Shown piece after piece: positions 5,424 to 54,190 of a stretch of 64,000 bases of DNA. The stretch lies in the IMG/VR virus record IMGVR_UViG_3300011008_000026, positions 30,501 through 94,500 of that record; one strand, given 5' to 3'. The stretch's first letter is position 1. The number at the start of each line of letters is the position of its first letter. The translations under genes were made by a program, and so were the position numbers. Under the pieces are notes generated by a model. It searched no databases. It saw nothing but the letters and a program-made list of their open reading frames with translations, and was not told where the DNA came from. Source of the stretch: a virus (Duplodnaviria > Caudoviricetes).

Positions 5424-5458
5424 CTCTCTCCATTATGGTGTTTTTCGAATGGAGAGAA
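5424..5458 (-). promoter_or_regulatory. Phage-specific promoter-like motif copy 1
   Basis: TTCTCTCCATTCGAAAAACACCATAATGGAGAGAG upstream of Dit; one of 7 copies. Confidence 0.65.
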
Positions 5459-5479
5459 AACTAAATCTAATCGAATCGT

Positions 5480-8400
5480 TTAAAAAGCTAATGCACCCAT
5501 ATTGAAACCTCTGGTAGAAATTTCTTTCTGGAACTGCTTTCCAACCTTCTTTGCGACCGCTCTGATATCTTCATCCGTATTCAGATTGGCCTGAGTAACA
5601 TTTATAATCACGTCTCCGATACTCTGGTTGTAAGTTTGCCCAAGGCTTTCCGGATTCTGCAAGGACATCAACTGAATGTTGATCGAGTTAAGGTAGTCGT
5701 TTAAATCAGCGCTATAATCTTTAATCGCAGTAAGATCGATACTCATCTGATCCATATAGAAGCCAAGCATGTCATAGGTGTCTTGAGCAATCATAAACTC
5801 GGGATCGCCAAGCATTGAAAGTTTAGACGATGAAATGGTACTTGTTTCTCCCGCTTCGTCTATCCCATCAAGAAGTGTCCGTATTAATCTTGTGTCTCCG
5901 GAGCTGAGAAACGCTTCCGGATTTGTTTTCGTTCCGTCAACCCAAGCAGGGCCTGTGAAATCAACTAAGCCACCTTTTTTATAAACTGACATACCTTTCT
6001 TTGCAGTGGTAACCATAGGTGTTACACTTGCGGTAGCTTCATCGGATGTATACCCCTGCTTTTTCAGCAATGAAACTGTAGATGACTTCAAACTATCGAG
6101 ACTTGCGTTCGCTGCATTTTGAGCTTCTGTTTTCGTTTTGAAACCCTTGTTACTGTATGTCCGACCATCAAAAGAGAACGAATAACCATGTTCATCATTT
6201 GTGGTGGTGGTATTAGTGCTTTTATTTCCAGAAGAGCCACTATAACTGGACGAACTTCCGTTTACGTTTATGGTAATTACCGGAACGGAAGTTGTCTCAG
6301 CAGACGCGTTAACATTGTTTGCAAAGTCTGCGGCATAGCTGCCGATAACATGGCTGTACTCATCGTACGGATCGTAGTTCTGAAGTTCAGGATCAACCTG
6401 TTTGGTGCGCTCATAATAATACTTGACTTCACTTGTGTAAAGACCAGTGTCGTATCCTGTACCATTGGCAATTTCTACTTTGTAGGTATAATCCTTCAAA
6501 TCTTCCAGTTTCTCTACGATCTCGTGATTATCAGTCCACTCGGCGTCGTTCTTAGTAGAAGCTTCGAAGTCGTCATACAGTTTTTCCCAATAGGAAATAA
6601 GCGCTTTCTGACCGGCTTCAGAGGCAATCTGATATTCCTGACTCTCTTTCATGAACGCAATAAAGGATTCCTGCGAACGCATTTCTTTGTCAACCTGATC
6701 CCAGTAGGTCTGGACATAACCTTTCATATTATCCCAGGTGTCGCTCCAGCCCTGCTCCATTTGTTTCCGGCTTTCTTCCGATGCGTTTTTATAGGCTTCA
6801 TTATATTGCTTCATCCAGTTCAGGTAATCTTCGAATGACCCGCTCATGATCTTGGAAAGCTCTTCAGAGAAGTTGTTGGAATTTTCCAGCATCTCATTCA
6901 GATCTTCCTCGTAGGCTTCTTCATAGTTGCCGATAGCTTCAATCTGATCGTCTATAATCTGAATAGCGGTATCAGCTTCCTGCTGGGCAATATCCCAGGA
7001 TATCTCCTTTTGAAGATCCGCGATCTGCCTGCGAAGCTCTTTAGCATCCTTTGTACGGGTAGAGTCAGCGGAAATTACGGCAAGCTGACGCTGTAACTCA
7101 GCCAGTTCTTCATACTTATCCGCTTCGTCAATAGCCGACTTCCGGGCATTTAATCTTTCGTTAATCAGACTCTTCTCCTGATTTAACGCTTGCTTCTTCT
7201 TCTCCAGATCTTTCTTCAGTAGCAATTTACGTTAGCACTATTAGGTTGTCATCCTCCGTGCTGTTACACAACAAATTTCCAATGATATCCTCCTGCCGAT
7301 TTTCTTCTTCCTTCGGCGACGGCTTGAATATTTAAGTTTCCCGGCATTGCTTTATTGGCTTCCGTACAACTCGAATAAATTACACCTGTTTCAACGCACA
7401 TAACTGGTCTTGAAACTGCTTTCTTTATCTTTTCTATATGTTCTTCAGATATTGTATGGCCCATATGTGATTTGCTGATTTTTTTTCTCTATACTCTTTA
7501 CTGGATCGTAATCTTCGATATTCGGCGTAAAAGACTGGGTCTTGGAACTGCTTTAATGTTTGCTCTCTTCTTGCTTTTCTGGACTCTTCTTTTTGCAATG
7601 CTTCTTTTACATGCTCAAAGCGGATTTTTGCCTTCTCTGGATTTTCACGATAATGTTTCTTTAGAGACTCGCTTTTCATTTTTGAGTACTCTTCATTGCA
7701 AACCAGCGCCCCATCTCCACCGCAAGTCCAATTATACCCTTTGGCTGAATCCGTAGTATTATAAAGCGCAATATAATATATTTCACGATCATTTATAACA
7801 TCCGGAGTACAAAGCTCTACGATCTCAAATCTAAAGCTATCAGGGCCATATTTATCCCATGCGTTTTGTAAATGCATATTATTATGAATACCTTTTTTTA
7901 ATTTCCAAATATGTAATGCCCATCTTGCTTGAATATCAATTGATCTTCCAATATATCGTTTCCCGTTTACCAAGTTTGTAATAGAATAGACACCGCATTG
8001 CTTCATTGCAATTACTCCTTTTCGTTGTGTAACTCTCATACTTTCGCATGAGTTCAGACTATATCTTACGCACATAAAGTGCGCACCAACCGCTTCGGCA
8101 GAGTGACGAGTTCTGCCTACTCCCAAAGGGGATAGTCGTTGAACCTTACTCTCCATTATGCGTATTTTCGAATGCGCGAATAATGAGGGAGTCTTGGCTG
8201 CTGATTGCCCATTCTAATGCTTGTTATTTTTAAGCGTTCACGTTTGCCTTTTCAGACTGCGTTGTAGCTAGCAAGCCTTTAGGGTGTTCCAGCAATTCGA
8301 TTGGTAGGGCCCTACTGTTTGAGCCCACTCATTCTTATATCTGGTTCGAATAACATCAAGCATTGAATCCTGAGCCGAGACCGTCGCTGACAGCATTTCT

Positions 8401-17400: not shown

Positions 17401-20400
17401 CCAATAAATCCACGATTCATGCCGTAGGTTGACCTTGTCAGCTGGTCCCCCTGCCGCATAAGCTGGTCATGCTGAAAATCTCTGGACTGAGATCGAAGCG
17501 CTATGCTTTCATCTGTATGTGCTTTAAATTCCTTTTGTTCGGCTTTTAACCTTTCCAGGTCAGCACTAAGTCTTTTAGCTCCATCCGCATATTCTTGGCG
17601 GGTTTGTTTGCTATAAGATTGGTCTCTGGCCATATCATTAAGCTTTTGCAGTTCTTTTTCTACTTCAGCGATTTTTTCTCTCCACTTTTCAAGTGCTTCG
17701 ATTTGGGGATCATAGGTTCCTGCAATTTTGTCATTAGCCGTGGAGAGACTTTCAATCATACTCTTGGATCCAGCCAAAGAATAATTCATGAAATCCCGGC
17801 CGGCCATAGAGGAAAGAGTATTATCACCTTTAACGAATCTGAGTAGTTCGGATTGTTGCTCGTCGCTTAATGTATCAAATTGACTTGATTTAACAAATTC
17901 GTTAATTCGTTTTTCGTAACCACGTGCAATACCTGTATTTACTTCCAAACGCCTGATTGCGGCAGGTGTTTCTTTAACCTTTGCAATGGAAGATAAATTA
18001 CCGGAATACAGTTGTTTAGAAAATTCGGTACTTCCTTGAATCAGCTGCGCAAAACGATCTTGGGCTAGTTGCCTGAACTCCGGATCCGCCATCATCCCGC
18101 CAGGTCCGGAAGGTCCACTGGGCGGATTGTTTGGCGGAGAAGGAGAAGAAGGAGGATTGTTACCCGTGTTATTTTGGCCTGTCTGATTACCGAGTACAAC
18201 AGGAACATTGTTTGTTGTTGTGTTGTGATTGGCTGCATTCGGGCATTGAGATAAAGATGCATCATATTCAATGCCACAAATCGGACACTTCTTTTTCGGT
18301 GTTTTACCTGAAGAAGTTCCCCCGCCTTGTCCGGTTTGTCCATTTGTGGTGGTTTGACTTCCGGATGCGGCAGGCGTTGCAGAAGCATTATTCGTTTGTG
18401 TTTTATGATTAGCCGCATTGGGGCATTCTGGAAGATTATGATCATACCAAGTGCCACAAATAGGGCATTTTGTTCTCGGGGGAATAGTCCAAGGTTCACG
18501 AGAGTCATAGAATGGAATATCTTCCATGCCCGGTTCTTCTTCAAATCTGCCTCTAATTCTCAGTATCTGACTTGCCGATTTAACTTGCGATCCTCTTCCC
18601 CTTGCTAACGTATAATGCTTTTTGATTGAGCTATCACTTTCCGTTGTAATATTTGGGATGGCTTCAGTTGCAACCAAAGCTTCTTTCTCTTTTTCTTCCT
18701 GCGTTTTCTGTGCAACTTTCCACCCCAACTCTGGCTTGGATGAAGGTTGATAATTTACATATTGACTGCCTTGTAATAATGCGATTGCCTTTTCTGCGGA
18801 AACTTGTCCAACTCCATTAGTTACTAATTGCTGCCAATTTCCAGAAGAGACAGCTGCGGCGACAGTCTCTCTTGGTAAATTCAGAATTGCATCAATTTGA
18901 GAATCATTTAATTTTCTGCCGGACGCAGGCTTTTGCGACAATAAATCACGAGCTTCATCTTTTGCCGTCTTCTGAACTTGATTTGCTACTTCAGCTTTTG
19001 CTTCAGCCGCCTTCTGTTCTTCTTTCGCCTGTTCCTGTTTTGCATCAGTTGCTTTTTGAGCAGCTTCTTCAGCCTTTGTTTCAAGAGCCGTATCAGGAAC
19101 TTTGTCTGTTGTTGTAACCTGTACGCTTTTTTCGCGTACATCCTTTAATACTTCATCGGCCTTTAACTTTTGCGCTTCAATTTCTGCTTGCGCAGCAGCT
19201 TCTTCTGCTTTGACCTGCTCTTGAGTCTGAACAATCTTTTTTCTTTTCGGTTTCGTTTCCTTTGGTTTTGGCTGTTCTACAATCTGTTCTGCCGCTGGCT
19301 CTTCGACTTGTGGCGCTTTAGATGCTGTAATTCTGGAATACAGCATAGAAGGATCAACGCCTAAAGAAGCGGCAAGCTTTTCAGCGGATGCTTTTCTCTC
19401 CGAATCACTTTCTATTGCACGCTGAGTATATGAATAGTTACTAATTTGCTCAGCTACCATCAGACCGGCAGCTTTACGTCTCTTTGCATATTCATCGTCG
19501 AGATTAAAATATTCACCATTCTTTTGCTTTTGCTTTTGTTCTTTTTTCAAATCAGCCCAGATTTCTTCGTCTGCAAGCCTTTTTTGCGCGAGTATAGCAT
19601 CTTCATCTTCCTGAGAAAGAGCAATAAAATCTCCATTTAATAAGCCTGCTTTCGCCTGACGAAGCATCATAGTAAGTTTGTAGGCTTCAGTTCCTTCTCG
19701 TTCCGATGTTGGCATGTTCTTTGAATCGAGAATTGTATTCCAGTCATAGAGAGAATTGCCGTGTATATCGTGACCATTGATTTCAAGACCCTGCTGTTTA
19801 AGCTTACTTCTTTGACGAAGTGTTCCAAGAACCGCACCGTTGGTTAATGTCGGAAGATTAACTTCGTCGAGTCTTCTTTTGTTAAATTTTTCTTGTGCTG
19901 CCTGATCCCATACATATCCGGATTCGTCATTAGCGCCTTTTGTAGTAACATCTTTAGCGGCCCATTCGAAAATTCTTGCAAAAGAACGACCAAAAGAAGA
20001 TGCACTTGTTTGTTCTTCTGTCTGCGCCCATTTTTCTGCTGTTTTTAAGTGAGTAGAAACAACATCATATTGATCTTCGTGGTCCAACAGAGCCTGAGCA
20101 AATTCAGGATTAATCTCGCCATTTCTATTATAAAGAGCCGCAATAATATCTGTAGCTCTATCTGCTTGACCCATCATGGGACTGGTTACGCCGACACCAA
20201 ACATATAATCAATGAGGTCATCCATGCTGTCCAGTTTCCATGTTTTATCAGGGTTGTCCGGTAGACTTAGTGTGCGATTCTCTTTTCGCGCTTTTTGATT
20301 TTTCCGAACGTATGCTATTTTTTGTTCATCGGTCCATTTTGACGCATCAGGGAATTGTTCTTCAGGGTGTTTCTTTGCCTTTTCCTGCATATTGTCAAAG

Positions 20401-30959: not shown

Positions 30960-31124
30960 AATTCATGGCCTCCTTTTATGTTTATTCATATCGAGCCGCT
31001 GTGCTTCTCCCACAAGCAATGCGACCTGATATACCAAAACTGAGGCCTTCAAATACCCTTTGCTGTTCACCCGCAGCTCGGGGAGAAAGTATTTAGAATC
31101 CGCCCTTGTCTCAGGCGGAGAAAG

Positions 31125-40182: not shown

Positions 40183-41850
40183 TTAGAATCCTGACGCAAA
40201 GCCGATAAATCCGACTCCGCGCCGTTTTGACTCGATATTCTTCTTCTCAAGCTCGGAAATATAATCGTTTCCCATCGCAAGAGAAGAATATCTGTCCTTG
40301 TGCATTCCGGATTTCGGAACGTCGTAAAGGACGTTCCCGCTGATACCTGTCTTGGGAACGATGTTCCCCATTTCGATCTGAAGCGCATCCGCCTGAACAA
40401 AATTGTCCAGCTCTTCTTTTGTCATGCGCTTACCTTCTTCTACTTCAGACTGTCTCTCTTTAGCAGTCCGATAGGAGACGGGAAGTTCGATTGTGTTCTT
40501 TTCAAGAGCAACACGAAGGTTGGAATAAATCCGCTGGTTTAATGTGTTGACAGCCCGGAAAGGATGCAAGACCTGAACGGCATCCGGGTTCGTAAGATCT
40601 TCATCGTCTACAACCAACGGAGGATATTCTCTCCCGGATTCGGGATCGATCCACACCCGGTCGAAGAACCGATCGAAACTGTCTCCCAGTCCACGGGCGT
40701 CGTATACAATCTTTTCCGTGTTTGGAAATTTGACATGATAATACTTGCGGATTTCTTCCGCAAGGAAATCCAGCGGCTTTCCGTTATACGGACGAATGTG
40801 GACAACCTGCCGGCTGAAGGAACCGTCTTTCTTCTCGTTGAACTTGTGCACGATCAGAATACTGTTATCCGATCCTTTCGCCTTGGAAGTCGCAATGTCC
40901 AGAGAGATGATATATCTGGACTTCGATCCTTTGGGCTGTTCCATTTCGATATTGGTAAGCGTCCGGCATTTCTGAACAAGATCGTAAGGAAACGCTGACT
41001 CCGCAGACGAACCGAGAAATCTGGATTCGTACTCCATCTGGAAAATGGCTTCCGGATTGTTTTTCTTTTCATCCAGATAATATTTTTCTGTCGTCAGACC
41101 TTCCCGTATGGGAGTGTGATAGTCCAGAACACATACAAAATAGTCCAGATTGCCGTGAGCCCGTTCCTGAACGATCCGTTCGAATTCTTTGTAGAACGCA
41201 AAGCTCTTCGGGCAGGCAGAAGTAATATAAACGAGCTTGGAAGGGAAATCTTCAAACTCGTATGACCTTGGATTGTAGCGGGTTTCGTTACGGGTCGGAA
41301 GAACGACGCTTCTTAAAACATCCATGTCCACGTCCCGTGCTTCGTCTACGATAACAAGTTTGGCCCGACGGGAACGCGCACTGCCGATTGCAACAGACTC
41401 TATAATACTGCCGTTCTTTAACGTACAGGTTGAACTGTCTTTTGCAATGGAGACATAGGTCTTGGCATTCGTCATCTTGATTTCGTTAGCAAAGTTTTCG
41501 TTCTCGTTTGCCAGATCCCGGATCTTTTCCGCAATACGGGTAGCTTGATCTGCAGTCGGAGCAACAACGAGTATTTTTGTTCCAGGATACAGTGACCCAA
41601 GAGATACGGAAATATTGGCAAGCATCCACGTCTTGCCGTATCCACGGGGAGCGACAATAGCCGAAGTAACAGCATTACCGATTCCTCGGACAATTACATG
41701 CTGAACAGGCGTGAGCTTGGTAGGAGCATATGCGTCTTCAACATACATATCCATATGAGTACGATAATAGATGATTTGCTCTTCGGCCGCATCCAGATTG
41801 TTGAGAGTACCTGAACGGGTATCCGCACGACGAGGTTCAACAGCTGTCAT
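40183..41850 (-). CDS. Terminase large subunit
   Basis: Walker A APRGYGKT, Walker B VIVDEA, ITSA, nuclease SLDIAT, YDARGLG, HKDRYSSL. Confidence 0.9.
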   Translation of the reverse strand: MTAVEPRRADTRSGTLNNLDAAEEQIIYYRTHMDMYVEDAYAPTKLTPVQHVIVRGIGNAVTSAIVAPRGYGKTWMLANISVSLGSLYPGTKILVVAPTADQATRIAEKIRDLANENENFANEIKMTNAKTYVSIAKDSSTCTLKNGSIIESVAIGSARSRRAKLVIVDEARDVDMDVLRSVVLPTRNETRYNPRSYEFEDFPSKLVYITSACPKSFAFYKEFERIVQERAHGNLDYFVCVLDYHTPIREGLTTEKYYLDEKKNNPEAIFQMEYESRFLGSSAESAFPYDLVQKCRTLTNIEMEQPKGSKSRYIISLDIATSKAKGSDNSILIVHKFNEKKDGSFSRQVVHIRPYNGKPLDFLAEEIRKYYHVKFPNTEKIVYDARGLGDSFDRFFDRVWIDPESGREYPPLVVDDEDLTNPDAVQVLHPFRAVNTLNQRIYSNLRVALEKNTIELPVSYRTAKERQSEVEEGKRMTKEELDNFVQADALQIEMGNIVPKTGISGNVLYDVPKSGMHKDRYSSLAMGNDYISELEKKNIESKRRGVGFIGFASGF

Positions 41851-43270: not shown

Positions 43271-43390
43271 TTTCCTAATCAACTCCTTAATCGTATTGTC
43301 TAAAATGTTTAACTGCAATAACCGCATGCAATAACTGCTATGCGAAACATGCAATTTAAATCTGATAGTATGGAGAAAGAAAACGGTATT

Positions 43391-43426
43391 CTCTCTCCTT
43401 TATGGTCGTTTTCGAAATCGGAGAAT
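43391..43426 (-). promoter_or_regulatory. Phage-specific promoter-like motif copy 5 (head of the packaging/virion operon)
   Basis: TTCTCCGATTTCGAAAACGACCATAAAGGAGAGAG. Confidence 0.6.
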
Positions 43427-43685
43427 CGGAAAATAATCGAAAAACTGAAAAGCGAACGGATGTTGTTTGAGAAAGAGATGTCTAGATTTGGTTTCTATGG
43501 AGAGAAATTTAATTTGATTGTGAAAACACATGTATGTAAGCATGCTTTTTTATTTCAGTGTAAAGAGACGGGAAAGGCTATTGAAAGATGATATGTATCG
43601 TGTTTTCTATATAACATAGGGTAAAAACGACACATATTGAGAGACGGAAATATGGGATATGGGATGGGGATAAGGAATGGTAGTA

Positions 43686-43800
43686 ATTAAAATTGAAAAA
43701 TGAGTTGGAAGGGATGGGGAATGGGAATAAAAACGTGGAAATGAGTTGGAAAGAATGGGGAATGGGATGATGGTGATTAAAATTTAAAAATGAGTTGGAA
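43686..43800. repeat. Purine-rich direct repeats in the strand-switch region
   Basis: AAATGAGTTGGAA at 43698, 43739 and 43788; ATGGGGAATGGGA twice. Confidence 0.75.
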
Positions 43801-43962
43801 AGAATCAATTTGGTGGTTTGAGGGATATAACGAAATATCCTGACGTAAAAGAGCCAACAAACCGGATTTCGATGTTTCATCGGATTTTTGGGTATTTGGT
43901 CTCTCTTACGATTGCGAGTAAGCCCTGAACCGGCAACGGCAGGCGTCGCTTGGAGGTAAATC

Positions 43963-44193
43963 ATGTCCGTTTCTTATAAGTTTGGTAAATTCACACAGGA
44001 AATCGACTTCGTTTGCGTTGAAGATGCGATCGAAGCAGCGATGGAACTTGCGAAAGTTCCTGGTGTGAAGAACTTGATCGCCTTCGGGGTAAACACAGCC
44101 CCGGTGGCGTACCCGGAAACCTACTCTAGTGTTGAAGAAGCATGTGCAGACATGCAAAATCATCTCTTCGTTATGCCGAAACGACTGTCGTGA
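43963..44193 (+). CDS. Small hypothetical early protein
   Basis: RBS GGAGGT. Confidence 0.65.
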   Translation: MSVSYKFGKFTQEIDFVCVEDAIEAAMELAKVPGVKNLIAFGVNTAPVAYPETYSSVEEACADMQNHLFVMPKRLS

Positions 44194-44274
44194 GACAGGC
44201 GTCGTCGTAGTGGTGGCTCCCTACGGCCTGATGATGGCAAGCCCGTCACGGAATTCGCTTACAGGAGGTACTCC

Positions 44275-44469
44275 ATGTTCCATGCTCCGTATACCCTTTA
44301 TCCTCGTGGACTTCACAGCGATCGAGCAGAGCTCGAGAGCGTGAAGTTTGACTTCATCCTGAACGCAGCGAACGCGTGGATGGACGAGGATAACCCGGAC
44401 GCGGCTGTCTACGACTGCATGGGTGTCCGGATCGCCAACGAGATCCTTCGGGAGCTTCTTGGCGAATGA
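44275..44469 (+). CDS. Small hypothetical protein
   Basis: RBS AGGAGGT. Confidence 0.65.
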   Translation: MFHAPYTLYPRGLHSDRAELESVKFDFILNAANAWMDEDNPDAAVYDCMGVRIANEILRELLGE

Positions 44470-44606
44470 CTTGACAGCGGCTGGATGACCGCTCAAACAA
44501 ACATCCTTTGCATATATCTTGGTTATGCACTTGAAACAAATCCAAGACTTTGGCGTGGACGCGGGTTAACCACGCTTAATCTCATTAAATCTTAGGAGGT
44601 ATTCCC

Positions 44607-45008
44607 ATGACTACTGTATATCAGGAAGTTGTTAAGGCTCGCATCTCCGTTGACACGCTCGATGGAATGTACGGTGTCCAGTTTGACACCGAGTACAGAC
44701 GCGGCCGGACATGGGAGTTTGATCCTATGTCCGATGCAATCGGGCAGAACATGTCCGTCGCTACCGGGAATATGAGAGTGTACTTTCACCCGATAGTGGA
44801 GTCTATGAAGTTTCCGGAGGACGCGAATCTCCAGAAGGAATACATCATGGACATTGAGTCAGCAAGAAAGCTGTATTCCTTCATCAAGAAGGATCAGTCG
44901 CCCTTCTGGTTCGCGCTGGCTTTGGCGCGCGAAGCCCAGACGCACGGACTTGCAGATCTCAATCTTGACGCAGTTGCAGGATGCGCAACTTGCGTCGAAC
45001 CCGTCTGA
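44607..45008 (+). CDS. Hypothetical protein
   Basis: RBS AGGAGGT. Confidence 0.7.
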   Translation: MTTVYQEVVKARISVDTLDGMYGVQFDTEYRRGRTWEFDPMSDAIGQNMSVATGNMRVYFHPIVESMKFPEDANLQKEYIMDIESARKLYSFIKKDQSPFWFALALAREAQTHGLADLNLDAVAGCATCVEPV

Positions 45009-45227
45009 TGATGGCCCGGCGGCACCGGGTCGAAACGAACGTCGTGAGACGTGCGTCACGGGAAGCCATTTGGTTTTCTGAACAAAAAGAGCGGCCGGCT
45101 TGAGCAACCGGCCGCCGAAAGAAGGCACCGCATGACACGGTACTTCAGGGTTCGTCACCCATGAAGTATTGTATCAGAGGTGCCGCGAAAAATCAAGCCC
45201 AAATTTAGGGCAGAAAGGCGGTAACCC

Positions 45228-45578
45228 ATGTACAAGTTTTACAATCAGAACGCGGAGAAACAGCTCCGCAAAGCAGGCTTCGATGTGGATTCCTATGAAA
45301 AGGAATGTGCTCCCTACATCGAAGTAATCTCTGGACGCAGAGATGCAATGGAAAGCAACGACATTGGCATGTATAACTACTACATGTCGTCGTCGCAGGA
45401 CAAAGCGAAACACGCTTCACACGACAAAGCGTGCAACGGTGTCAAAACACTGAACTCGATTTGTCGTGACCATGGGTTCGATCTCCTTTTCTCCGGAGAC
45501 GAGTCCAATCGACAGGAGATCGGCAAGTTCGTTTGCGAGTTTACTGGCAACTCGAACCTGTCCGATTTCGTGGATTAA
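45228..45578 (+). CDS. Hypothetical protein
   Basis: RBS GAAAGGCGG; 116 aa. Confidence 0.65.
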   Translation: MYKFYNQNAEKQLRKAGFDVDSYEKECAPYIEVISGRRDAMESNDIGMYNYYMSSSQDKAKHASHDKACNGVKTLNSICRDHGFDLLFSGDESNRQEIGKFVCEFTGNSNLSDFVD

Positions 45579-45589
45579 GGAGGTACCGT

Positions 45590-45751
45590 ATGTACGACAT
45601 CTTCTTGATCCTTGCCTGCTTCCTTCCTGCGGCGGCTATCGTAGGGGCCGCCGCAGGGATCGTGTATCTCTGCGTGCGACATTGGGAGATCGGAGCTTCA
45701 GTTATTACTGTTGTTCTGTTCTTCCTTGCTTTCATATTTATCCATCCTTAA
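45590..45751 (+). CDS. Small two-TM membrane protein
   Basis: RBS AAGGAGGT; two hydrophobic stretches. Confidence 0.6.
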   Translation: MYDIFLILACFLPAAAIVGAAAGIVYLCVRHWEIGASVITVVLFFLAFIFIHP

Positions 45752-45829
45752 CGAAGTTTGAGGACAGGAGCTCTGCGGGGCTCCTGAGTTCAGGCTTCGG
45801 CTTGATAATTTGAAAGGAGGACTTCGAAG

Positions 45830-46105
45830 ATGAAGAAGTTCGTCGCTGTCACTCTGCTGGTTGTCTCTCTGGTTTTCTGCGCTTTCGCTTCTGCGGAAGT
45901 AAACTTCTACCCCAAAGCAGCCGTGGTTGTCGAGATTAACTTCGACAATCATGGAAATCTCTTCACCGTCGTCGAGGACGGAGAAGGGTACCTTTGGGAG
46001 GTTTACTGGGATCTAGACGAGGAAACAGATATCTCGTTAGGAGATGTCATTGCTCTCGTCATGTGGGGAGGTGAACACCATGCCGGACATTCGGCGGTTC
46101 GGTGA
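45830..46105 (+). CDS. Small exported protein
   Basis: RBS AAAGGAGG; signal peptide MKKFVAVTLLVVSLVFCAFASA. Confidence 0.65.
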   Translation: MKKFVAVTLLVVSLVFCAFASAEVNFYPKAAVVVEINFDNHGNLFTVVEDGEGYLWEVYWDLDEETDISLGDVIALVMWGGEHHAGHSAVR

Positions 46106-46190
46106 CGACTACGCCATCGTCATCGACGGGAAGCTGATCCGGTGTGAATCCTACGACGCCGCCTACGCGCTGTGGGAAGAAGCCGAATAA
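46080..46190 (+). CDS. Very small hypothetical protein (36 aa)
   Basis: RBS GGAGGTG; MPDIRRFGDDYAIVIDGKLIRCESYDAAYALWEEAE. Confidence 0.45.
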   Translation: MPDIRRFGDDYAIVIDGKLIRCESYDAAYALWEEAE

Positions 46191-46421
46191 GCTTCTGTCT
46201 CTAGATTCTACCATAAGCACATGGGATGAATCAAGCGTTTTCTGTTCGCTTAGATAACAGGGCCTTGCCGTGGGAAGCGGCTTTGGTTGAGTCTCCGAGA
46301 AAGACTCCGTTAATGCTCTTCGTAGCAAGGCGTTCGTAAACGCCGCAAGCCCACACTCAGGGCTACAGCCGGGGAGTCCCGGACGAAACAGGCAGTATAA
46401 CTGCCAGAAAGAAGGCTAATC

Positions 46422-49400
46422 ATGACTAGGAATTCTAAAAAGATCGTCTCCCGGGAACCCAGCGTCGGCTTTTCTCTTCGTGCATTCGATTCCAGCGTAG
46501 TTCTGGATGAGTATGCCGGACGGCTCTTCGACCTGAAGGGTCTCGCAGATGATCTTTGGGTAGTAAACCCGAAGACCGGAAAGCGGGAACCCGACCCTGA
46601 GATCGTGAAGCAGGGCCGCAACGCCTTCGCCGCTTTGGTTTCTTTCGCCGAGTCCATTCAGGCGAAACCCTTCCATATGAAGGAGAACCAAAGCAAGATA
46701 TCCCGGATGTCCCGTAGCATCGGCTCCGACATCTTCGGAGTTGACTACGAAGCGAAGACGCCCACGAAGGAGTGGGTCGTTGTTCAGCACGACATCCAGG
46801 AGAAGTTCAACTTCCCTTGGCAGTTCGCCGGTTCCGTCCGGAAGAAAGGCGAAGCCGAGATCGAACGTCTCCAGAAGCTGGTTGAACGCCGCTTTGGTGT
46901 TGCTGGACTCGACGTCATCCGCAAGGATGGCACGACTGACCGTTACTTTGGATTTGCCAGTTCTGCATCTCATCAGAAGAATGAAAAGCTCGTCATGGGC
47001 TTGGCATCGTCTATGGAAAGGCATGAAAAGGCGATCTGGTTCACGTTGACGAAAGAAGAGTTTCTGAAGCTCGACGTCAACGGAGCCGCGATCTGGAAAA
47101 TGCGGGCGAACATCCTTCGTCCCATCCGGTGTGAGATGAAGACCGAATCCGGCCGTCAGCTCAAGTTGTCCGACATCCAGCTCGTACCGGACATCGTGGT
47201 TAATCGGCACATCGAGAATGCCCGCACCGTGGGGAATCTCGATGAAGAAGGAAACGTCTTCCGAGACGGTCCCGTCGACGCCGAGAAAACCATGGCCGAC
47301 GGGGCTATCGTGTACACCGGACGCGATGGCGAAACCGATCTCGGGCCGCTGAAGCAGTGGGGCCAGACCACCAGCTTCGGAGTCAAAGGATGCGGTTGCG
47401 ATGGCCGTTCCTGCATCGAGGTTGCGGCCAAGCTTGAAGGCAAGCCAATTCCGAACAACCTGAAGCCCATCCTGATGGGAGAAGGTTGCTGGAAGTTCGA
47501 CAAGATCGGCCTTACTTGGGAAGAGTTCGTCGCTCGTGTCAACGAGATGGCGAAGGAATATCCCAGCCTGAACAAGCTGTATCTCCTTCGAGAGGCGGAT
47601 GAGCTTGAAGGAGAAACCAAGATTCGCCGGCTGACCCGGAGCCTGATCCAGCAGTGGGTCCATCTTTCGGGCTCTGACATCCGGAAGATGACTGCCCGTA
47701 GCAGGAAAGCACTCCGCCGGATGAAGACAATGAAGGGAGCAATCTCTTCTCTGACTGAAGCCGGCAAGCCCGAAGAAGAGCGGAGCGATGTAGCGAAGCT
47801 CTTCGGCAAGGCTCCGTGGCTGGTCCTGAACAGCTGCATACAGCAATATCTTCAGACTCGCTTCGAGAAGAAGCAGGCTGAAGCGGCTGGAAACAAGCTG
47901 CGTACGGAAGGCTCCTATCCGTATATTCAAGAGGATTTGGTTGCCGTTGCTCAGATTTGGGTATTCGGCGCTGATCCGAACCGGATGGACTTGGGTGTTC
48001 TGGCCGCTGATGAGATCAGTGTTCCGGACACCGAAGAGCGGAAGGTCCTGGCGGTCCGTTTCCCGGCGAACTACCAGACGGCGGCTGTTCGGAAGAACAA
48101 GGCGTGCGTCGAAGAGTTCGCTTCCTGTCCCGGTGTGTGTATGATCAGCTTCTACGATGACATCCTGATTCGGCAGGATGGCGACGTAGACGGTGATGAG
48201 ATTGCGATCATCCTGAATGACATCGCGATCGCCGCCACCGAGAACATGTACACCGAGTTCAATCCTCCTGTTGTAATCTTCGCGCATGGCGACAAGGCAA
48301 AGAAGGAAGTCATCGGTACAGAGGAGCGTTTGATCGCGACGATGTACGACGACCTCTGGAAGGCGAAGAAGTTCGATGGAGTAGGGAAGTATGCCAATCT
48401 GGCGACTCTCTGCTGTCATCTGGCTTCGGTTGCCTATGCCGAAGGACGGATGGCTGATATGCAGGTTCATCTCAATCAGATGAGTCTTGCATCGACGGGC
48501 GCGATCCTTGCGATTGATCAGGTGAAGGGGAACTCTGTGTCTCCTGAGCTAATCGATCGGTTGGAGAACATTTCCAAGCAGGTCTCCAAGATCTGTCGTG
48601 GAGTGTGGTCCAACGCGCATCCCGACCTGACGGAAGTTCCCAGCCGGCCGATGCCCTACACTCAGCAGTTTGTAAAAGGACTGTCTGAGCTGGAGTGCAT
48701 GCCGGAATCCGTGTCCCTGACTGATCAGATCGCTGGTCTGGTTATGCGGGACAGCGGAGAATGGGCGTTGGATACCGGATCCGCTGAATGGAACCGGGTC
48801 GAGGCGAAGCGTGCTCTGCTGAGCTTCGGCAACTATCGTGTCACCAGTGTCCGGAAGGCTCCGCTGGTTGGTACGGTGTTGAATCAGCTTTCCAATAACT
48901 GGTTCAACGACAAGAATCCGTCGGACAAGGCCGTGTTCGATGCGATTCGGAATTGCCAGCCGGTCTCTCAGTCGGATCTTCTGTCTCTTCTCTGGCGCAA
49001 TGCCTGCGCGCTTGAATTCCGCATGGAAGGCGAGAATCTGATCGAGAAGAGGAAGGAGTACCTGAAGGTGTGCAAAGAAATCCTGTATACGCAGGCCTGC
49101 TCTACGAAGTGGGTTGCGTCGGATGACGGACACATCTTCACCGATGCAGAGAAGAAGTTCTCGGTAGTGAATTCTGCCGTGTCTTCTGCTCTGTGTCTGA
49201 ACGGCAAGTCCAACGGTATTGACGCTGACAAGCGTGGCTCCTTTGCCATGTTTGTTCTGAAGGTCTTTGCCAAGGAACTGTGCTGGGCACTGGATCGTAG
49301 CAATCCGGATTCTTCTTTATTCTGCTTCAAGCAGGATGAGCTGGATGATCCGGACGACGAAGAGCTCTACACGGACGAACTCGGTGAGTCGGACGATGAA

Positions 49401-49463
49401 GAGTTTGAGTCGGAGTGGTTCTCTGATGAAGAGTACTACGACTGCAATGACTATTGCGACTAA
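46422..49463 (+). CDS. Single-subunit two-barrel RNA polymerase (SPbeta YonO / cellular RdRP-like)
   Basis: MADG, QTTSFGVKG, LTRSLIQ, VRFPAN, catalytic DGDVDGD (D588/590/592; 48183-48197), GVGKYAN, AIDQVKG; acidic tail. Confidence 0.85.
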   Translation: MTRNSKKIVSREPSVGFSLRAFDSSVVLDEYAGRLFDLKGLADDLWVVNPKTGKREPDPEIVKQGRNAFAALVSFAESIQAKPFHMKENQSKISRMSRSIGSDIFGVDYEAKTPTKEWVVVQHDIQEKFNFPWQFAGSVRKKGEAEIERLQKLVERRFGVAGLDVIRKDGTTDRYFGFASSASHQKNEKLVMGLASSMERHEKAIWFTLTKEEFLKLDVNGAAIWKMRANILRPIRCEMKTESGRQLKLSDIQLVPDIVVNRHIENARTVGNLDEEGNVFRDGPVDAEKTMADGAIVYTGRDGETDLGPLKQWGQTTSFGVKGCGCDGRSCIEVAAKLEGKPIPNNLKPILMGEGCWKFDKIGLTWEEFVARVNEMAKEYPSLNKLYLLREADELEGETKIRRLTRSLIQQWVHLSGSDIRKMTARSRKALRRMKTMKGAISSLTEAGKPEEERSDVAKLFGKAPWLVLNSCIQQYLQTRFEKKQAEAAGNKLRTEGSYPYIQEDLVAVAQIWVFGADPNRMDLGVLAADEISVPDTEERKVLAVRFPANYQTAAVRKNKACVEEFASCPGVCMISFYDDILIRQDGDVDGDEIAIILNDIAIAATENMYTEFNPPVVIFAHGDKAKKEVIGTEERLIATMYDDLWKAKKFDGVGKYANLATLCCHLASVAYAEGRMADMQVHLNQMSLASTGAILAIDQVKGNSVSPELIDRLENISKQVSKICRGVWSNAHPDLTEVPSRPMPYTQQFVKGLSELECMPESVSLTDQIAGLVMRDSGEWALDTGSAEWNRVEAKRALLSFGNYRVTSVRKAPLVGTVLNQLSNNWFNDKNPSDKAVFDAIRNCQPVSQSDLLSLLWRNACALEFRMEGENLIEKRKEYLKVCKEILYTQACSTKWVASDDGHIFTDAEKKFSVVNSAVSSALCLNGKSNGIDADKRGSFAMFVLKVFAKELCWALDRSNPDSSLFCFKQDELDDPDDEELYTDELGESDDEEFESEWFSDEEYYDCNDYCD

Positions 49464-49507
49464 TAACAAAGCTGTGCTATCGGCTAGACGGGCAGAAAGG
49501 GGAAGTT

Positions 49508-49741
49508 ATGTACAGGATTTATGCTCAGCTTGATGACACCCGGGGATACCACACCGCTGTCTTCTATGATCAGGAGATGGCATCCAAGTACTTTAAGAAT
49601 ATCCGTGCGAAGTATCCGGACGGATATATCAAAGTCAGCTGGAACTGCAATATCCGCGTCTCACGCCTATGCAGAGGTTCGACTGATTTCATCTCAGTCA
49701 CAGAGAAAGGATACTCTGTGGCTGATCTGTACCTTCGTTGA
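49508..49741 (+). CDS. Hypothetical protein
   Basis: RBS AAAGGGG; MYRIYAQLDD... Confidence 0.55.
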   Translation: MYRIYAQLDDTRGYHTAVFYDQEMASKYFKNIRAKYPDGYIKVSWNCNIRVSRLCRGSTDFISVTEKGYSVADLYLR

Positions 49742-50382
49742 TCTGCTCGCCCTGGGGTATGGCGTTAAACTGCCCCGAGTTCGGTAGAGCCCCCATGCGT
49801 GGAGGTTCTCCCGAGCCCTTAGGGCGGGGACGGGGGCTACCGCCCCCTTTCGCCCCACCCGGCTATATAATAAGGGTGAGCCATATACTATTTCCCAGCT
49901 TCGTCTCTCAGCCATGTCCGACTGTTCCTTCCATCGCCAGCCCTCCGCAGGCTCCGGGCTACTCCGGCGAGTGGCTCTCCTAAAAGCCGCTCCGGGTCTT
50001 GTCTCGCTTGTGAGTCACCCGTCTCTTGTCGGACCATGCCGCTACGGACACCGCTACGCTCCGGAAAAAATTATCCGGTTGGATAATATTGCTTCCGATA
50101 CCGCTACGCTCAGGTAAAAAATTATCTGGGCGGAATCCCGGCGCTTCGGAATGCGGGGCTCTCCGGATTCTCAGGCGGATTCTTTAAACCGGCGGATTTT
50201 TCCAAGGCCCCGTTCCCGGCGCGATTCCTCCCCAGCGCGATTATCCGGGCGGATTTCATGCGCCACCCTTCCTTCAAAAAAATTTTATTCCCCGCGGCGC
50301 GAGCGCCGCTACATAATACCCCGGCGAAGGATCTTCCTTCAAACAATTTATATTATTATTAATTACGAAAGGTGGCTCTACC

Positions 50383-50637
50383 ATGAAGTACAAGACGATC
50401 GAGGACATTGCCCAGCTGAAGGAGCACGTTTACGCGAAAACCAACGAGATCGAGGCGCTGACCAGGCGGCTGGAATCAATCCACAACCTGATTCCTGTCA
50501 TGAGCGAAAAGGCGAAGGCTGAAGCTCTGGCGGAAGCGTTGCAGATCAAAGCGGACATCGCGAGTCTCAGGGCTTTCATTACGAAGGCCAAGGCTGAGAT
50601 CTCCAAGTTCTACGCTCCGGCCCAGAAAGTTGCGTAA
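50383..50637 (+). CDS. Small coiled-coil protein
   Basis: RBS GAAAGGTGG. Confidence 0.65.
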   Translation: MKYKTIEDIAQLKEHVYAKTNEIEALTRRLESIHNLIPVMSEKAKAEALAEALQIKADIASLRAFITKAKAEISKFYAPAQKVA

Positions 50638-50789
50638 CCTAATCCTGCCCCGGCTGATGATCAGTTCCGGCCGGGGTGGACGTTTCCAGAAAGACTGGCT
50701 TCTAAAGCGTTGAGCCATTAATCAGCGCTATTCCATTCCGGTTTTCGGAAAAATTTTATATGGCCTATGGCCAAGAAAGGGTGCTCTCC

Positions 50790-51113
50790 ATGCAGAGAAT
50801 GAGTGTCAAGGATTTCCAGTTTTTGTTTGATGTTACCATCCCGCCGTTTGAAGCCTGCACAGGCAGAGGTCGTGAGCCCGTTACAGTAAAGCAAAGGGCT
50901 CAGCTTCACGAAGCCGGATTAAATACGACCGGTTTGAAGTGCAAGTCTCAGGCTACAGCAATTATTAAAACGCTGAACAAGCGTCAGGAAATGGGCCTGT
51001 GCGATGTTCATGCTGTTCTTCTGATTCTGGCAACCGGTGCGCGTCCGCGTACTCCTTACCGGATCATGACCCAGAAACACGCTCTGCAGATTATCTCCCG
51101 TAAGCTGTATTGA
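50790..51113 (+). CDS. Hypothetical basic protein
   Basis: RBS GAAAGGGTG. Confidence 0.55.
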   Translation: MQRMSVKDFQFLFDVTIPPFEACTGRGREPVTVKQRAQLHEAGLNTTGLKCKSQATAIIKTLNKRQEMGLCDVHAVLLILATGARPRTPYRIMTQKHALQIISRKLY

Positions 51114-51364
51114 CAGATGTTCGATTCCGGAGACTGATTCAGCCTTCGGACTTGAGCACCTGTACATCCCCGTCCAGCGGGGCATGGGAACCTCCTTTCA
51201 CCCTGTACCTTGAGCAAGTACAGGGTACTTTTTTGATCGTCCAAAAGGGTCGTCGGATTGACGATCGTTTGTTCCAAAGCCTGGCAGACCGGGACAACTG
51301 CTGGGCTTTTCTGTGGTGTAAAGACTTGGTTTCAAGTCTTCACATACATCCTCCTTTTTTCTGA
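51110..51364 (+). CDS. Hypothetical protein
   Basis: TTG start overlapping the upstream stop. Confidence 0.4.
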   Translation: MTDVRFRRLIQPSDLSTCTSPSSGAWEPPFTLYLEQVQGTFLIVQKGRRIDDRLFQSLADRDNCWAFLWCKDLVSSLHIHPPFF

Positions 51365-51511
51365 GCAGAGGGTTAAGGTTGACAGTGAGCAACTACCCTC
51401 TGTCTCGTCTCTCGTTTACTGTCCCCGACTTGACTCTGGAGACGGGCGCAGGCGCCCTCTCTGTTACTCTTTCGGAAATTTTTTTAAATTCTGTTGCTTC
51501 GGAGGTGCAAC

Positions 51512-51952
51512 ATGGAAAGGTCTGCTATCGTCGTCTACACCGACGGCTCATGTAAAGGGAATCCCGGCCCCGGTGGATGGGCCGCGATCCTGACTGTCGG
51601 TGACAAAGAGCTTGTTCTTACGGGAAACTGTAAGGACACAACCAACAATCGTATGGAATTGACAGCAGTGATTAAGGCTGTCGAGTCCTGTAAACGTCCG
51701 CACGACATCACAATCGTAGCGGACAGCACTTACGTCATGATGACGCAGAGTCGGTGGAAGAAACAGAGCAAGCAGAGTTCATGGAAGAATTCTGATCTCT
51801 GGGTCAATCTGCTGACAGCCTGCAAAGCTGGCGATCACAAAATTCGTTTCAGACATGTCGACGGTCATAGCGGCCATGTCTATAACGAGCGTTGTGACAA
51901 GCTTGCCAGACAGCAGGCGGAACTTGCCGCACAGGAGGCTTACAATGGATGA
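51512..51952 (+). CDS. rnhA: Ribonuclease HI
   Basis: YTDGSCKGNPGPGGW, TTNNRMELTAVI, DSTYV, KNSDLW, HVDGHSGHVYNERCDKLA. Confidence 0.95.
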   Translation: MERSAIVVYTDGSCKGNPGPGGWAAILTVGDKELVLTGNCKDTTNNRMELTAVIKAVESCKRPHDITIVADSTYVMMTQSRWKKQSKQSSWKNSDLWVNLLTACKAGDHKIRFRHVDGHSGHVYNERCDKLARQQAELAAQEAYNG

Positions 51953-52085
51953 CGTTCGTGAACTCCCGAATGGGGAGAAGAAAGTCTTCGATTCTGAAAA
52001 TGAATACGAAGACGCATACTGGGACGCCGTGTTCGAAATGAACAACGGTTTCTGCACTGAGATGCCGGAGGATTTCGTATGGTGA
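51945..52085 (+). CDS. Small acidic protein
   Basis: RBS AGGAGG; overlaps both neighbours. Confidence 0.55.
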   Translation: MDDVRELPNGEKKVFDSENEYEDAYWDAVFEMNNGFCTEMPEDFVW

Positions 52086-52363
52086 TCCAGATTGCAGTTA
52101 TAGTCCTTCTTATCGCTGTTGCTTTTGTATCAGGAATGATAACGGCTGACAGGTTCAACCGGAGAGCGGCATATGAAACTCAGGTCGCTCTACAAAAGCA
52201 ATACTTAAGACTCCGGGCTGGAGTAGACGCTGATGATATAGGACAGCCGTATGTCTATGCTCCTAAATATCGTCATCGATACTCCGCTTCCCCCGAGTTT
52301 ATTGACCGGCTCCGAACAAACGGGTCAGCCACGGAATCGGTCAAAAACAAACAAGTCGGTTAA
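52079..52363 (+). CDS. Membrane-anchored hypothetical protein
   Basis: RBS GGAGG; N-terminal TM helix. Confidence 0.6.
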   Translation: MVIQIAVIVLLIAVAFVSGMITADRFNRRAAYETQVALQKQYLRLRAGVDADDIGQPYVYAPKYRHRYSASPEFIDRLRTNGSATESVKNKQVG

Positions 52364-52644
52364 ACTCGCGGCGCGAGCGCCGCTACAAGTAGCCCTGCGA
52401 AGATTGCCGAAATAAAAATTACAATCGGTAATCCTTCAGAAATTCCATGGCGGAGGTTTCTACATGACCACGACAACGCCCAGACTGTCGTAAAACGGTC
52501 TGCCAGAAATGCTTGAAAAAGAACTCCGTAAGGAGAGAGCTGAGGGCAAGACGGGATGCAGAGATGCATTTGATCGAATGGGTAAAGCTTACTCCGGAAC
52601 TAAAACTACACCAAATTTAAACAACGAGAAGGAGAGAAGAAAAA

Positions 52645-53070
52645 ATGAAGAGCGCTATGATTATTGGACGTATCACCAAGGATGCTGTGCTGGAATCCCG
52701 TACCGTCAAGGGAGACGCCACTCCGGTTACCAACTTCAATGTCGCGGTTAACACCCTGACCAACAAGCTGGACGAGCAGGGCCGGCGCATCCAGACCACG
52801 GACTACTACCGCATCACCCTCTGGCGGAACTTTGCCACGGCCATGGCTCCGAACCTGAAGAAGGGTCGGCTGATTGCTGTCAGCGGCAAGGACTTCGCCC
52901 TGGAGACCTGGATGGACCGTCAGAACCAGGTTCACCCCACCCTGCACTTCACCAACCCCGACATTCAGCTCCTGGACAAGAAGCCTGAGTCTGGGGCTGA
53001 TGAACCCGCTGAGGGCAATGCTGTAGTTGCGGCTCCCGTCGATGTTGACGATCTGCCCTTCGAGGTTTAA
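52645..53070 (+). CDS. ssb: Single-stranded DNA-binding protein
   Basis: IIGRITKD, FNVAVN, TDYYRITLW, LKKGRLIAVSG, acidic tail DDLPF. Confidence 0.95.
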   Translation: MKSAMIIGRITKDAVLESRTVKGDATPVTNFNVAVNTLTNKLDEQGRRIQTTDYYRITLWRNFATAMAPNLKKGRLIAVSGKDFALETWMDRQNQVHPTLHFTNPDIQLLDKKPESGADEPAEGNAVVAAPVDVDDLPFEV

Positions 53071-53129
53071 TCCCCAGAACTTTCAAGCGTGACTGGTCAG
53101 TACATGATCCCACGCAACAGACAAATCAC

Positions 53130-53169
53130 AGGAGTCTGAGCCCGATAAGGGTTCAGGCTCCTTTTTTTT
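53130..53169 (+). terminator. Intrinsic terminator after ssb
   Basis: AGGAGTCTGAGCCC-gataa-GGGTTCAGGCTCC followed by T8. Confidence 0.8.
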
Positions 53170-53240
53170 GACGGTTCTAAGTTACTTGTCCATGACTGGC
53201 TTTTGGCTTATGAATTTCTTTGTCTGACTCTCCGGAGATT

Positions 53241-53276
53241 TTTCTCCGCATTCGAAAAATCCCATAATGGAGAGAG
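53241..53276 (+). promoter_or_regulatory. Phage-specific promoter-like motif copy 6
   Basis: TTTCTCCGCATTCGAAAAATCCCATAATGGAGAGAG. Confidence 0.65.
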
Positions 53277-53532
53277 ATGTCTGAGGACCTGCTTTTTGGG
53301 ATCTCTTTTTTTGGCGGATCCGTCGTTGCGTACGGATTCCGTTGATTAACCGCTGAGCATGACTGACTGTTCTCCAATTTCGGATTCGTCAGCCTGCTCA
53401 GGAATCTGGCGGGGCGGATTTCTTACAAGCCCATTATAAGTGGCCGGGCTTTTTTCCAGCGGGCATTTTCTAAATCCCCCTGTCTCCCCCCGTCCTACTA
53501 CCCCCATTACTCTTACAGGGAGGGATTTTCTT

Positions 53533-53802: not shown

Positions 53803-53977
53803 AAACTATTATAACTTACAGTGTTTTTTAAACAAATCAGCTCAGGTGGAATCCGGATGAACAAATTCACATCCGACATCCTGGAAGAGCTGATTGTGTT
53901 AAAAAGCTCTATTTGTTATAGGAGTTTTTGACAAACACGATAGACGAACTGTCTGTAGACAGCAAAGGAGCAACAAG

Positions 53978-54139
53978 ATGACATACGAAGACATGGATAA
54001 AGCAAACTCTGTTCACGATTGTACGCTGGATGATCTGCCCTTTGGAGAACTCTGTGACGAGGACGACTGGCTGATCGATGAGTTTGACAGTCTGTACATG
54101 GACATTACAGACGTTTCAGACTTACTTCCGGTGTGCTGA
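53978..54139 (+). CDS. Small, very acidic protein (53 aa)
   Basis: RBS AAAGGAG; MTYEDMDKANSVHDCTLDDLPFGELCDEDDWLIDEFDSLYMDITDVSDLLPVC. Confidence 0.55.
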   Translation: MTYEDMDKANSVHDCTLDDLPFGELCDEDDWLIDEFDSLYMDITDVSDLLPVC

Positions 54140-54154
54140 TTCCGGACAGAAAAT

Positions 54155-54190
54155 TTTCTCCGCATTCGAAAAATACCATAATGGAGAGAG
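54155..54190 (+). promoter_or_regulatory. Phage-specific promoter-like motif copy 7 (upstream of the tRNA/ncRNA cluster)
   Basis: TTTCTCCGCATTCGAAAAATACCATAATGGAGAGAG. Confidence 0.65.

Follow-up and report, generated by a model that had tools for sequence, protein, structure and literature searches.

What does a ~33-bp sequence do that recurs seven times along a phage genome, each time ahead of a gene, and if it starts transcription, which RNA polymerase (RNAP) reads it? The question is raised by a 94.5-kb contig of an uncultured gut phage from IMG/VR (record IMGVR_UViG_3300011008_000026, here called G000), of which bases 30501-94500 form the window, the 64,000-nucleotide stretch of DNA to which all coordinates without a genome or contig name refer. 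The genome is siphovirus-like, with a minus-strand structural arm and a plus-strand arm. An earlier note, made from the letters of the window, had described the seven copies as a promoter-like motif and had proposed that it is the recognition site of one of two phage RNAPs. Our analysis indicates that the motif is very probably a promoter. The fuller reading, a phage-specific promoter that is probably read by a polymerase of the phage itself, is the one we favor, with somewhat more reserve.

All seven copies were found within 1-3 nt of the coordinates given in the note. A motif scan of the whole genome, which the note had suggested as a check, was carried out as a fuzzy search of the 94.5-kb contig and returned exactly these seven copies; the first 30.5 kb of the contig contain none. 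When up to three mismatches were allowed, the 33-mer matched four times in the window and not once in 100 dinucleotide-preserving shuffles. A weight matrix was built from 29 copies from nine contigs and used in gapless scans. Six sites in G000 scored 36-41 bits, while shuffled genomes reached at most ~14 bits. The remaining site, copy 4, scored 13 bits because its spacer is 1 nt shorter and the scan was gapless. The copies, with the position of an invariant GG, and two features next to them are as follows.

5426-5458, minus strand: copy 1 (core 5426-5452, GG 5431/5430), at the junction of tape measure exon 2 and Dit, 85 nt before the Dit start codon
8149-8181, minus strand: copy 2 (GG 8154/8153), in the group I intron of the tape measure gene, 142 nt before the endonuclease start codon
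28827-28859, minus strand: copy 3 (GG 28832/28831), within a group I intron (P5 loop), with a GIY-YIG endonuclease gene 58 nt downstream
30762-30793, minus strand: copy 4 (GG 30767/30766), with a spacer shorter by one A; a GIY-YIG endonuclease gene follows after 23 nt
43393-43425, minus strand: copy 5 (variant GATTTCGAAAACGACCATAAAGG; GG 43398/43397), heading the structural arm, with the first terminase-operon gene 122 nt downstream
53130-53162, plus strand: strong intrinsic terminator (14-bp stem and T8), which ends the SSB operon 89 nt upstream of copy 6
53242-53274, plus strand: copy 6 (GG 53269/53270), ahead of an 89-aa phrog_1709 gene
54156-54188, plus strand: copy 7 (exact consensus; GG 54183/54184), ahead of tRNA-Thr
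54454-54526, plus strand: tRNA-Thr, 266 nt downstream of copy 7

As the note had claimed, the copies are always oriented with transcription: all seven are co-oriented with the next gene. The gene after copy 1 is Dit (phrog_33), and the gene after copy 5 encodes a protein of 162 aa and heads the terminase/portal operon. The note had placed the copies upstream of the terminase operon, Dit, three homing endonuclease genes and the tRNA region. These positions hold; however, the three copies linked to endonuclease genes are intronic and not ordinary intergenic ones. Directly after copy 6, a hairpin followed by a T7 run (53275-53320, plus strand) has the appearance of a terminator; it may be an attenuator or give a very short transcript before the phrog_1709 gene.

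Relatives with the core were identified by pattern scans of the uncultured viral contigs in IMG/VR. G000 itself is 67% complete according to CheckV. Two relatives are complete or nearly so: G005 (150.8 kb, with terminal repeats, complete) and G006 (124.6 kb, 92% complete), most of whose structural proteins are common to G000 at 40-78% identity. A third, G004, is syntenic with the structural arm of G000 at 65-80% nucleotide identity. G005 contains six sites and G006 seven, at 26-39 bits, with the next best match at 14 bits or less. For G000, G005 and G006 together, true sites score 26-41 bits against no more than 14 bits for the next best, and 20 of 20 sites are non-coding and co-oriented with the next gene.

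The placement of the motif is orthologous in relatives whose nucleotide identity is 65-80% or lower. It occurs at the tape measure/Dit junction in G000, G004, G005 and G006. Ahead of the terminase operon (an orthologous gene) and ahead of the phrog_1709 gene it is found in G000, G005 and G006; in G005 and G006, too, a terminator comes first, then the motif and then the phrog_1709 gene. tRNA genes follow the motif in G000 and G005, where the counterpart of copy 7 (copy d) lies 87 nt before tRNA-Gln with no intervening open reading frame (ORF). Other genes with the motif upstream are an HD phosphohydrolase gene (G003, G005), a second free polymerase gene (G003, G005, G006) and, across genomes, endonuclease genes of the GIY-YIG and HNH types.

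The core of the motif is ~26 bp long and consists of GCATTCGAAAA, 3-4 variable bases, (C/T)ATAA, one variable base and GGAGA(G). The alignment of the 29 copies gives the consensus TTCGAAAA, 4-5 variable bases, (C/T)ATAA, one variable base and GG(A)(G)(A), in which TT, AA, ATAA and GG are invariant and C, G, A and A are nearly so. The information content amounts to 36.5 bits over 26 columns. Within a genome the copies, including the intronic ones, have lineage-specific bases in common, namely C-ATTCG in G000, G-TTTCG in G005 and TTCGGTACC...GAAGCC-TTTCG...TATAARGGAA in G006; the plus-arm copies of G005 have an additional upstream block, TTTGATAAAAT. Concerted evolution of this kind would be the pattern expected of sites that are read by one co-evolving trans-acting factor.

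Alternatively, the motif could be the operator of a DNA-binding regulator of the phage, a repressor or an activator, and the real promoters would be distinct from it and lie beside it. The motif is indeed long, highly conserved and partly palindromic (TTCGAA; CCAT-A-ATGG), and the lineage-specific upstream blocks of G005 and G006 suggest more than one contact surface. However, the motif as a whole is asymmetric, always points downstream and is in fixed register with hairpins that begin at the GG. Furthermore, the sequence next to it contained no further conserved element resembling a promoter. We consider an operator very improbable. A second promoter class was not apparent either: k-mer searches of the intergenic regions of G000 gave no other high-information motif, and the only other intergenic repeats that they returned were Shine-Dalgarno-like strings.

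The surroundings of the motif point to transcription initiation. Several copies are located at or near strand-switch points. Canonical terminators, with a long GC stem and a T-run, occur 36-102 nt upstream of copy 6 in G000, copies c and e in G005 and copy e in G006. Stems of at least 6 bp begin exactly at the GG, or one base before it, in 11 of the 29 copies; the corresponding value in 500 shuffles averaged 3.6 and did not exceed 9. The number of stem starts is 5 at offset -2 and 11 at offset -1, a sharp rise, and 14 of the 29 leaders have a folding z below -2. Among the copies of G000, a hairpin begins at the GG in copy 5, and copy 1 is followed by two hairpins, the first of which begins at the GG. 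Positions +1 to +10 are 72-100% purine. The fact that hairpins begin at the invariant GG suggests that the transcript starts there. Since copy d of G005 stands directly before tRNA-Gln with no ORF between them, the motif is not a translation signal. A start codon formed by the ATG inside CATAATGG was also considered and rejected: there is no ribosome-binding site, the frame relative to the downstream gene is inconsistent, and in copy 4 the ATG is out of frame. Together, the conserved placement, the order of terminator and motif, the tRNA directly downstream and the hairpins at the GG make the promoter reading, judged from sequence, a well supported one.

The motif could instead be an RNA-level element in read-through transcripts, acting in processing, in antitermination or as a hairpin for stability or translation, with the promoters elsewhere. 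In the hairpin version TCTCC...GGAGA would mask the Shine-Dalgarno-like run. The note had reported that these flanks are complementary in most copies, and this is the case in five of the seven copies of G000; complementarity is also seen in G001 and G005. In addition, the motif forms a real RNA helix, P6, in the tape measure intron, and a strict co-orientation with genes is equally expected from an RNA element. The comparison of the 29 copies speaks against it: the cells of the helix are paired in 71.6% of cases compared with 68.1% after shuffling, pairs in which both sides have changed number 2 versus 2.4 expected, and the sole pair with a compensatory change is unpaired in 11 of the 29 copies. 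The upstream (outer) arm is absent in G003, G004, G006 and several other contigs, and the conservation sits in the 'loop', at the level of the primary sequence. Moreover, four copies in three genomes follow just after strong terminators and one stands before a tRNA. An RNA-level role is therefore improbable in our judgment. The hairpin as a family-wide feature was rejected because its base pairs are not maintained by compensatory changes. The complementary flanks to which the note had drawn attention are lineage-specific and not conserved across the family, and hence are no part of that signal.

The note had held the motif to be unlike sigma-A promoters, and this was borne out. TTCGAA and CATAAT are separated by 6 nt (5 nt in copy 4). 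The column that would be -7 contains T in 15, A in 10 and G in 4 of the 29 copies, whereas the two G that follow never vary. There is no -35 element at 16-18 bp and no TG extension. A search for the Sigma70_r2 domain was negative in all frames of G000, G005 and G006 and positive in 10 of 14 control genomes. Because the final T of a -10 element is not conserved, a -35 element is missing and no sigma domain was found, the motif is not a sigma-A promoter. In bacterial genomes seven matches to the exact pattern were found, with unrelated flanks; this is about the number expected by chance, so that the motif is not a widespread host signal.

The host core RNAP might still read the motif if it were redirected by a phage factor, either a divergent sigma or an appropriator/activator. 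The TTCGAAAA block would then be the site of the factor and (C/T)ATAA a -10-like melting element. Factors of both types are known; T4 gp55 is a divergent sigma, while T4 MotA/AsiA and P23-45 gp39 are examples of the appropriator/activator type. The (C/T)ATAA block fits this scheme in being AT-rich and in having, where the -11 A would stand, an A that never varies, and the middle and late genes of phage P23-45 do use a modified host polymerase. The occurrence of the motif before a phage polymerase gene in the relatives would also be explained easily if another enzyme reads it. The variable -7 followed by an invariant GG, together with the missing -35, TG extension and Sigma70_r2 domain, does not agree with such a factor, nor does an information content of 36 bits, which is several times that of sigma-type promoters and like that of the T7 class. 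The same is true of the number of sites: only 6-7 in a genome of 125-150 kb, heading very long units, as with YonO of phage SPbeta. We regard a redirected host polymerase as unlikely, though an alternative to be taken seriously.

A reader encoded by the phage agrees better with these features, and the genomes contain candidates for it.

46422-49463, plus strand: candidate free YonO/QDE-1-like two-barrel RNA polymerase, ORF1013 (1013 aa; DGDVDGD at aa 586-592)
19788-22340, minus strand: tape measure protein, RNA-polymerase-like domain in its N-terminal part (aa 450-1300, with DFDGD at aa 1046-1050)
L041:1302-3635, L042:6536-9364, L047:2453-5260 and L057:701-3091: free YonO/RdRP-like paralogues in G005/G006

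The claim of two phage RNAPs, one of which reads the motif, stands in part. The polymerase candidates are real by homology, but the near-complete relatives encode three polymerases and the motif precedes one of them. ORF1013 belongs to phrog_8308, together with relatives that match the Pfam RdRP family PF05183. It is similar to a 935-aa protein of G006 (BLAST E 2e-10) that matches PF05183 above the cut-off, and 26 of the 30 ESM Atlas clusters nearest to ORF1013 carry PF05183. A Pfam search directly with ORF1013 gave no match; its family assignment comes from the PHROG, BLAST and ESM Atlas links. In G000, G004, G005 and G006 alike, the N-terminal part of the tape measure protein contains DFDGD, and a profile of this region aligned with the free polymerases (hhalign) from the first barrel to DxDGD with a probability of 84% and an E of 7e-6. 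In the PDB no chain was matched by single sequences or profiles of either candidate, and an AlphaFold model of the tape measure polymerase domain, made from an alignment of four sequences, was unusable with a mean pLDDT of 38.8. A 'phages' collection contained no near DNA match to the phage and no protein match for ORF1013, and a search for loci related via ORF1013 found nothing.

G005 and G006 each encode two free paralogues with ~25% mutual identity, which together with the tape-measure-fused enzyme makes three polymerases. Paralogue A (777 aa in G005, 797 aa in G006) is located near a strand-switch point; paralogue B (942 and 935 aa) has the motif upstream of its gene. Because the motif precedes the B gene in G003, G005 and G006, paralogue A or the injected enzyme would be the simpler candidate reader in G005 and G006. 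We infer that the motif is read by a phage polymerase, and we leave the individual reader to these candidates. Upstream of the free polymerase gene lies an ~80-nt element with the hairpin GCCGTGGGAAGCGGC (46190-46290, plus strand; G005 41000-41080), which is conserved in G000 and G005 although the proteins no longer match by BLAST.

These observations can be combined into a model. The motif would be a phage-specific promoter whose reader is a single-chain RNA polymerase of the two-barrel type, encoded by the phage; this would be the free YonO-like enzyme or the tape-measure-fused one, and not the host sigma-A holoenzyme. Transcription would start at or next to the invariant GG, so that the RNAs open with a purine run (GGAGAGAG), which in many cases would fold immediately into a hairpin at the 5' end. 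Hairpins at the 5' terminus and Shine-Dalgarno-like runs close to it are known to shield mRNA in Firmicutes from decay that depends on the 5' end. A few promoters would drive long units, one from the terminase through the tape measure and one from Dit through the tail genes; the small phrog_1709 unit and the tRNA unit would be further units of this kind. Where three polymerases are encoded, they may form a relay in which the injected tape-measure-fused enzyme leads to free enzyme A, and this to the motif, which then drives free enzyme B and the structural operons. The GIY-YIG endonucleases borne on introns would carry their own promoter copy in peripheral loops.

Group I introns contain copies 2-4, each upstream of a GIY-YIG endonuclease gene, an arrangement that is newly recognized here. 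The introns were detected with the Rfam model RF00028 on the minus strand.

8035-8375, minus strand: group I intron core in the tape measure gene (RF00028, 67.4 bits)
7434-8006, minus strand: GIY-YIG homing endonuclease gene of the tape measure intron (PF01541, E 2.4e-9)
28124-28768, minus strand: intron-encoded GIY-YIG endonuclease gene after copy 3 (Pfam GIY-YIG/NUMOD3)
30115-30738, minus strand: intron-encoded GIY-YIG endonuclease gene after copy 4 (Pfam GIY-YIG, E 7e-6)
29055-29301, minus strand: sister group I intron with neither endonuclease gene nor motif (Rfam 71.8 bits; short P5 loop)

The tape measure intron (7225-8375, minus strand) separates a 5139-aa ORF from a 581-aa ORF, which are the two exons of one protein of ~5,700 aa; the 581-aa ORF matches the C-termini of the tape measure proteins of relatives (BLAST), which are 4930-5658 aa long. 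According to the Rfam alignment, copy 2 forms the loop and the 3' arm of the P6 hairpin of this intron, and the endonuclease gene follows after P9. The intron of copy 3 has weak Rfam cores at 28751-28898 (partial) and 27999-28196 (3' core). In the partial Rfam alignment (model positions 60-139) the copy is an insertion in the P5 loop, and the endonuclease ORF begins in the P6 loop. Copy 4, which was placed by eye, lies in a peripheral loop after the 5' strand of P6, with the 3' core of the intron at 30012-30197 (weak Rfam). The introns provide a natural control: both sister introns that bear an endonuclease gene have the motif, whereas the endonuclease-less sister has none. The presence of the motif thus tracks the presence of the endonuclease, at three different intron positions. 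In the region of the tail genes, three sister introns occur within ~3 kb (27999-30960, minus strand), and the small exon fragments that separate them have their matches in single genes of the relatives.

The arrangement has a parallel in phage T4, where intron endonucleases, I-TevI in td and others, reportedly have late or middle promoters inside the intron. Here, too, GIY-YIG genes are found in peripheral loops of group I introns in phage genes, each after a phage-type promoter, and in read-through RNA the GGAG run can be hidden by a hairpin. The copy in a peripheral loop upstream of the intron ORF is observed; its role as a promoter is putative. The two cases differ in promoter class, host and phage, and here three positions are used (P5 loop, P6 loop and P6 stem-loop) by the putative promoters. 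We propose that an intronic promoter copy would place the expression of the endonuclease on the schedule of the phage itself, as in the td/I-TevI introns.

As a probable promoter, the motif would belong to the known class of phage-private promoters. The closest known system is that of phage P23-45. There the virion polymerase gp96 is fused to the tape measure and gp64 is a non-virion polymerase; the promoter of the virion enzyme, TTATTCYTTTA, ends at +1 and that of the non-virion enzyme, CTAGGGGC, lies ~8 nt before +1 (Chaban et al. 2024, PMC10770324). Both phages are siphoviruses with a tape measure of ~5,000 aa or more, an RNA polymerase in its N-terminal part and a free paralogous polymerase or polymerases, and both have short conserved private motifs upstream of co-oriented genes. 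The present motif is longer and bipartite (~26 bp, 36 bits). It occurs in 6-7 copies on both arms and heads structural operons, whereas P23-45 has at least 14 copies, clustered on pre-early genes, and transcribes its late genes with the host polymerase. At the sequence level, no match could be detected between the polymerases described here and the P23-45 structures of the PDB.

YonO of phage SPbeta has a single late promoter, P_YonO, the sequence of which is still undefined (Forrest et al. 2017, PMC5467207). Common to both systems are a polymerase of the YonO/QDE-1-like family (Pfam RdRP) and the use of few promoters for very long late operons. A string TATAATGGG in the yonN-yonK gap of SPbeta was tried as a counterpart and discarded; it occurs once and lies outside the published primer-extension interval.

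The single-subunit polymerases of T7, T3 and SP6 also have private promoters; that of T7 has ...TATA followed by the start GGGAGA. The motif resembles this class in its length of ~23-26 bp, its high information content and an AT block followed by a G-rich purine start (here ...ATAAT, GGAGAG). A few copies heading long units and concerted evolution within the genome are further features in common. The polymerases here, however, have the unrelated two-barrel (cellular-type) fold, and the start site is predicted. Among the proteins examined no T7-like polymerase was noticed, although no systematic search for one was made. The promoters of the N4 virion RNA polymerase are recognized as extruded DNA hairpins with stems of 5-7 bp and loops of 3 nt. 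An injected virion polymerase and the inverted-repeat character of the motif are reminiscent of N4; yet here the arms are variable and it is the 'loop' of 13-19 nt that is conserved, which differs from an N4-type promoter.

Several points weigh against a phage promoter read by a phage polymerase. In copy f of G005 and copy a of G003, the GGAG of the motif lies 7-8 nt before the start codon, where it resembles a ribosome-binding site, and the leaders would be extremely short if transcription starts at the GG. The motif precedes the B gene in three genomes, so that enzyme B would not be the sole reader unless read-through primes its synthesis. A divergent phage sigma or an appropriator acting with the host core could escape the Pfam search for the r2 domain. 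The motif has no resemblance to TTATTCYTTTA or CTAGGGGC of P23-45. In 50 kb of SPbeta, including the primer-extension interval, the weight matrix found no match above 5 bits. Finally, part of the phage is present in two DNA runs from gut metagenomes, and RNA runs containing it are not listed.

A literature search returned no description of the promoters of this phage group. The promoters of YonO-type polymerases are essentially unknown, and only the P23-45 motifs have been mapped; a signal of ~36 bits with a predicted +1 makes the question testable. The motif might be the first defined promoter consensus for a two-barrel polymerase of the YonO/QDE-1 type in phages of gut Firmicutes, with an orthogonal polymerase-promoter pair, a possible three-polymerase relay and introns that match the resident specificity; we put this forward tentatively, at slightly less than an even chance. 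If true, it would represent a new orthogonal single-protein transcription system and a possible tool. The data sketch a phage of ~125-150 kb, its tape measure longer than 5,000 aa, in which six or seven start signals would serve very long operons. The intronic copies, read from their sequence context, may be an example of promoter capture, in which mobile introns adapt the expression signals of their endonucleases to the private transcription machinery of the phage that hosts them.

The two arms of G000 have the following contents.

Minus-strand structural arm: terminase large subunit, portal, major head protein, tape measure, Tal and fibre
Plus-strand arm, from ~43960: contents include RNase H, SSB, two tRNAs and a MYG1-like exonuclease

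The tape measure ORF of 5139 aa has a PhageMin_Tail domain at aa 2238-2445; Tal is 2143 aa and the fibre 2599 aa long. The tape measure proteins of G005 and G006 are 5658 and 5172 aa, respectively. Where the plus-strand arm starts (44000-53000, a stretch that contains the polymerase gene), GC is 51-55% compared with 41-44% for most of the genome.

Other repeats were also noted. The string GAGGTGCAAATCC is repeated in five plus-arm intergenic gaps of G005 (54029-113617, plus strand) and absent from G000; it may be another class of signal. Short direct repeats are present at 63702-63988. Three direct repeats of 41-49 nt (AATTAAAATTGAAAAATGAGTTGGAAGGGATGGGGAATGGG; 43667-43815, plus strand) lie in the ~530-nt non-coding gap between the divergent arms and are candidates for early promoters, a packaging site or an origin. 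The gap between the two tRNA genes, with 37% GC, contains ~8 tandem T-rich repeats of 13 nt (TTTACTTACTTCT; 55735-55930, plus strand), which are iteron-like and may mark a replication origin.

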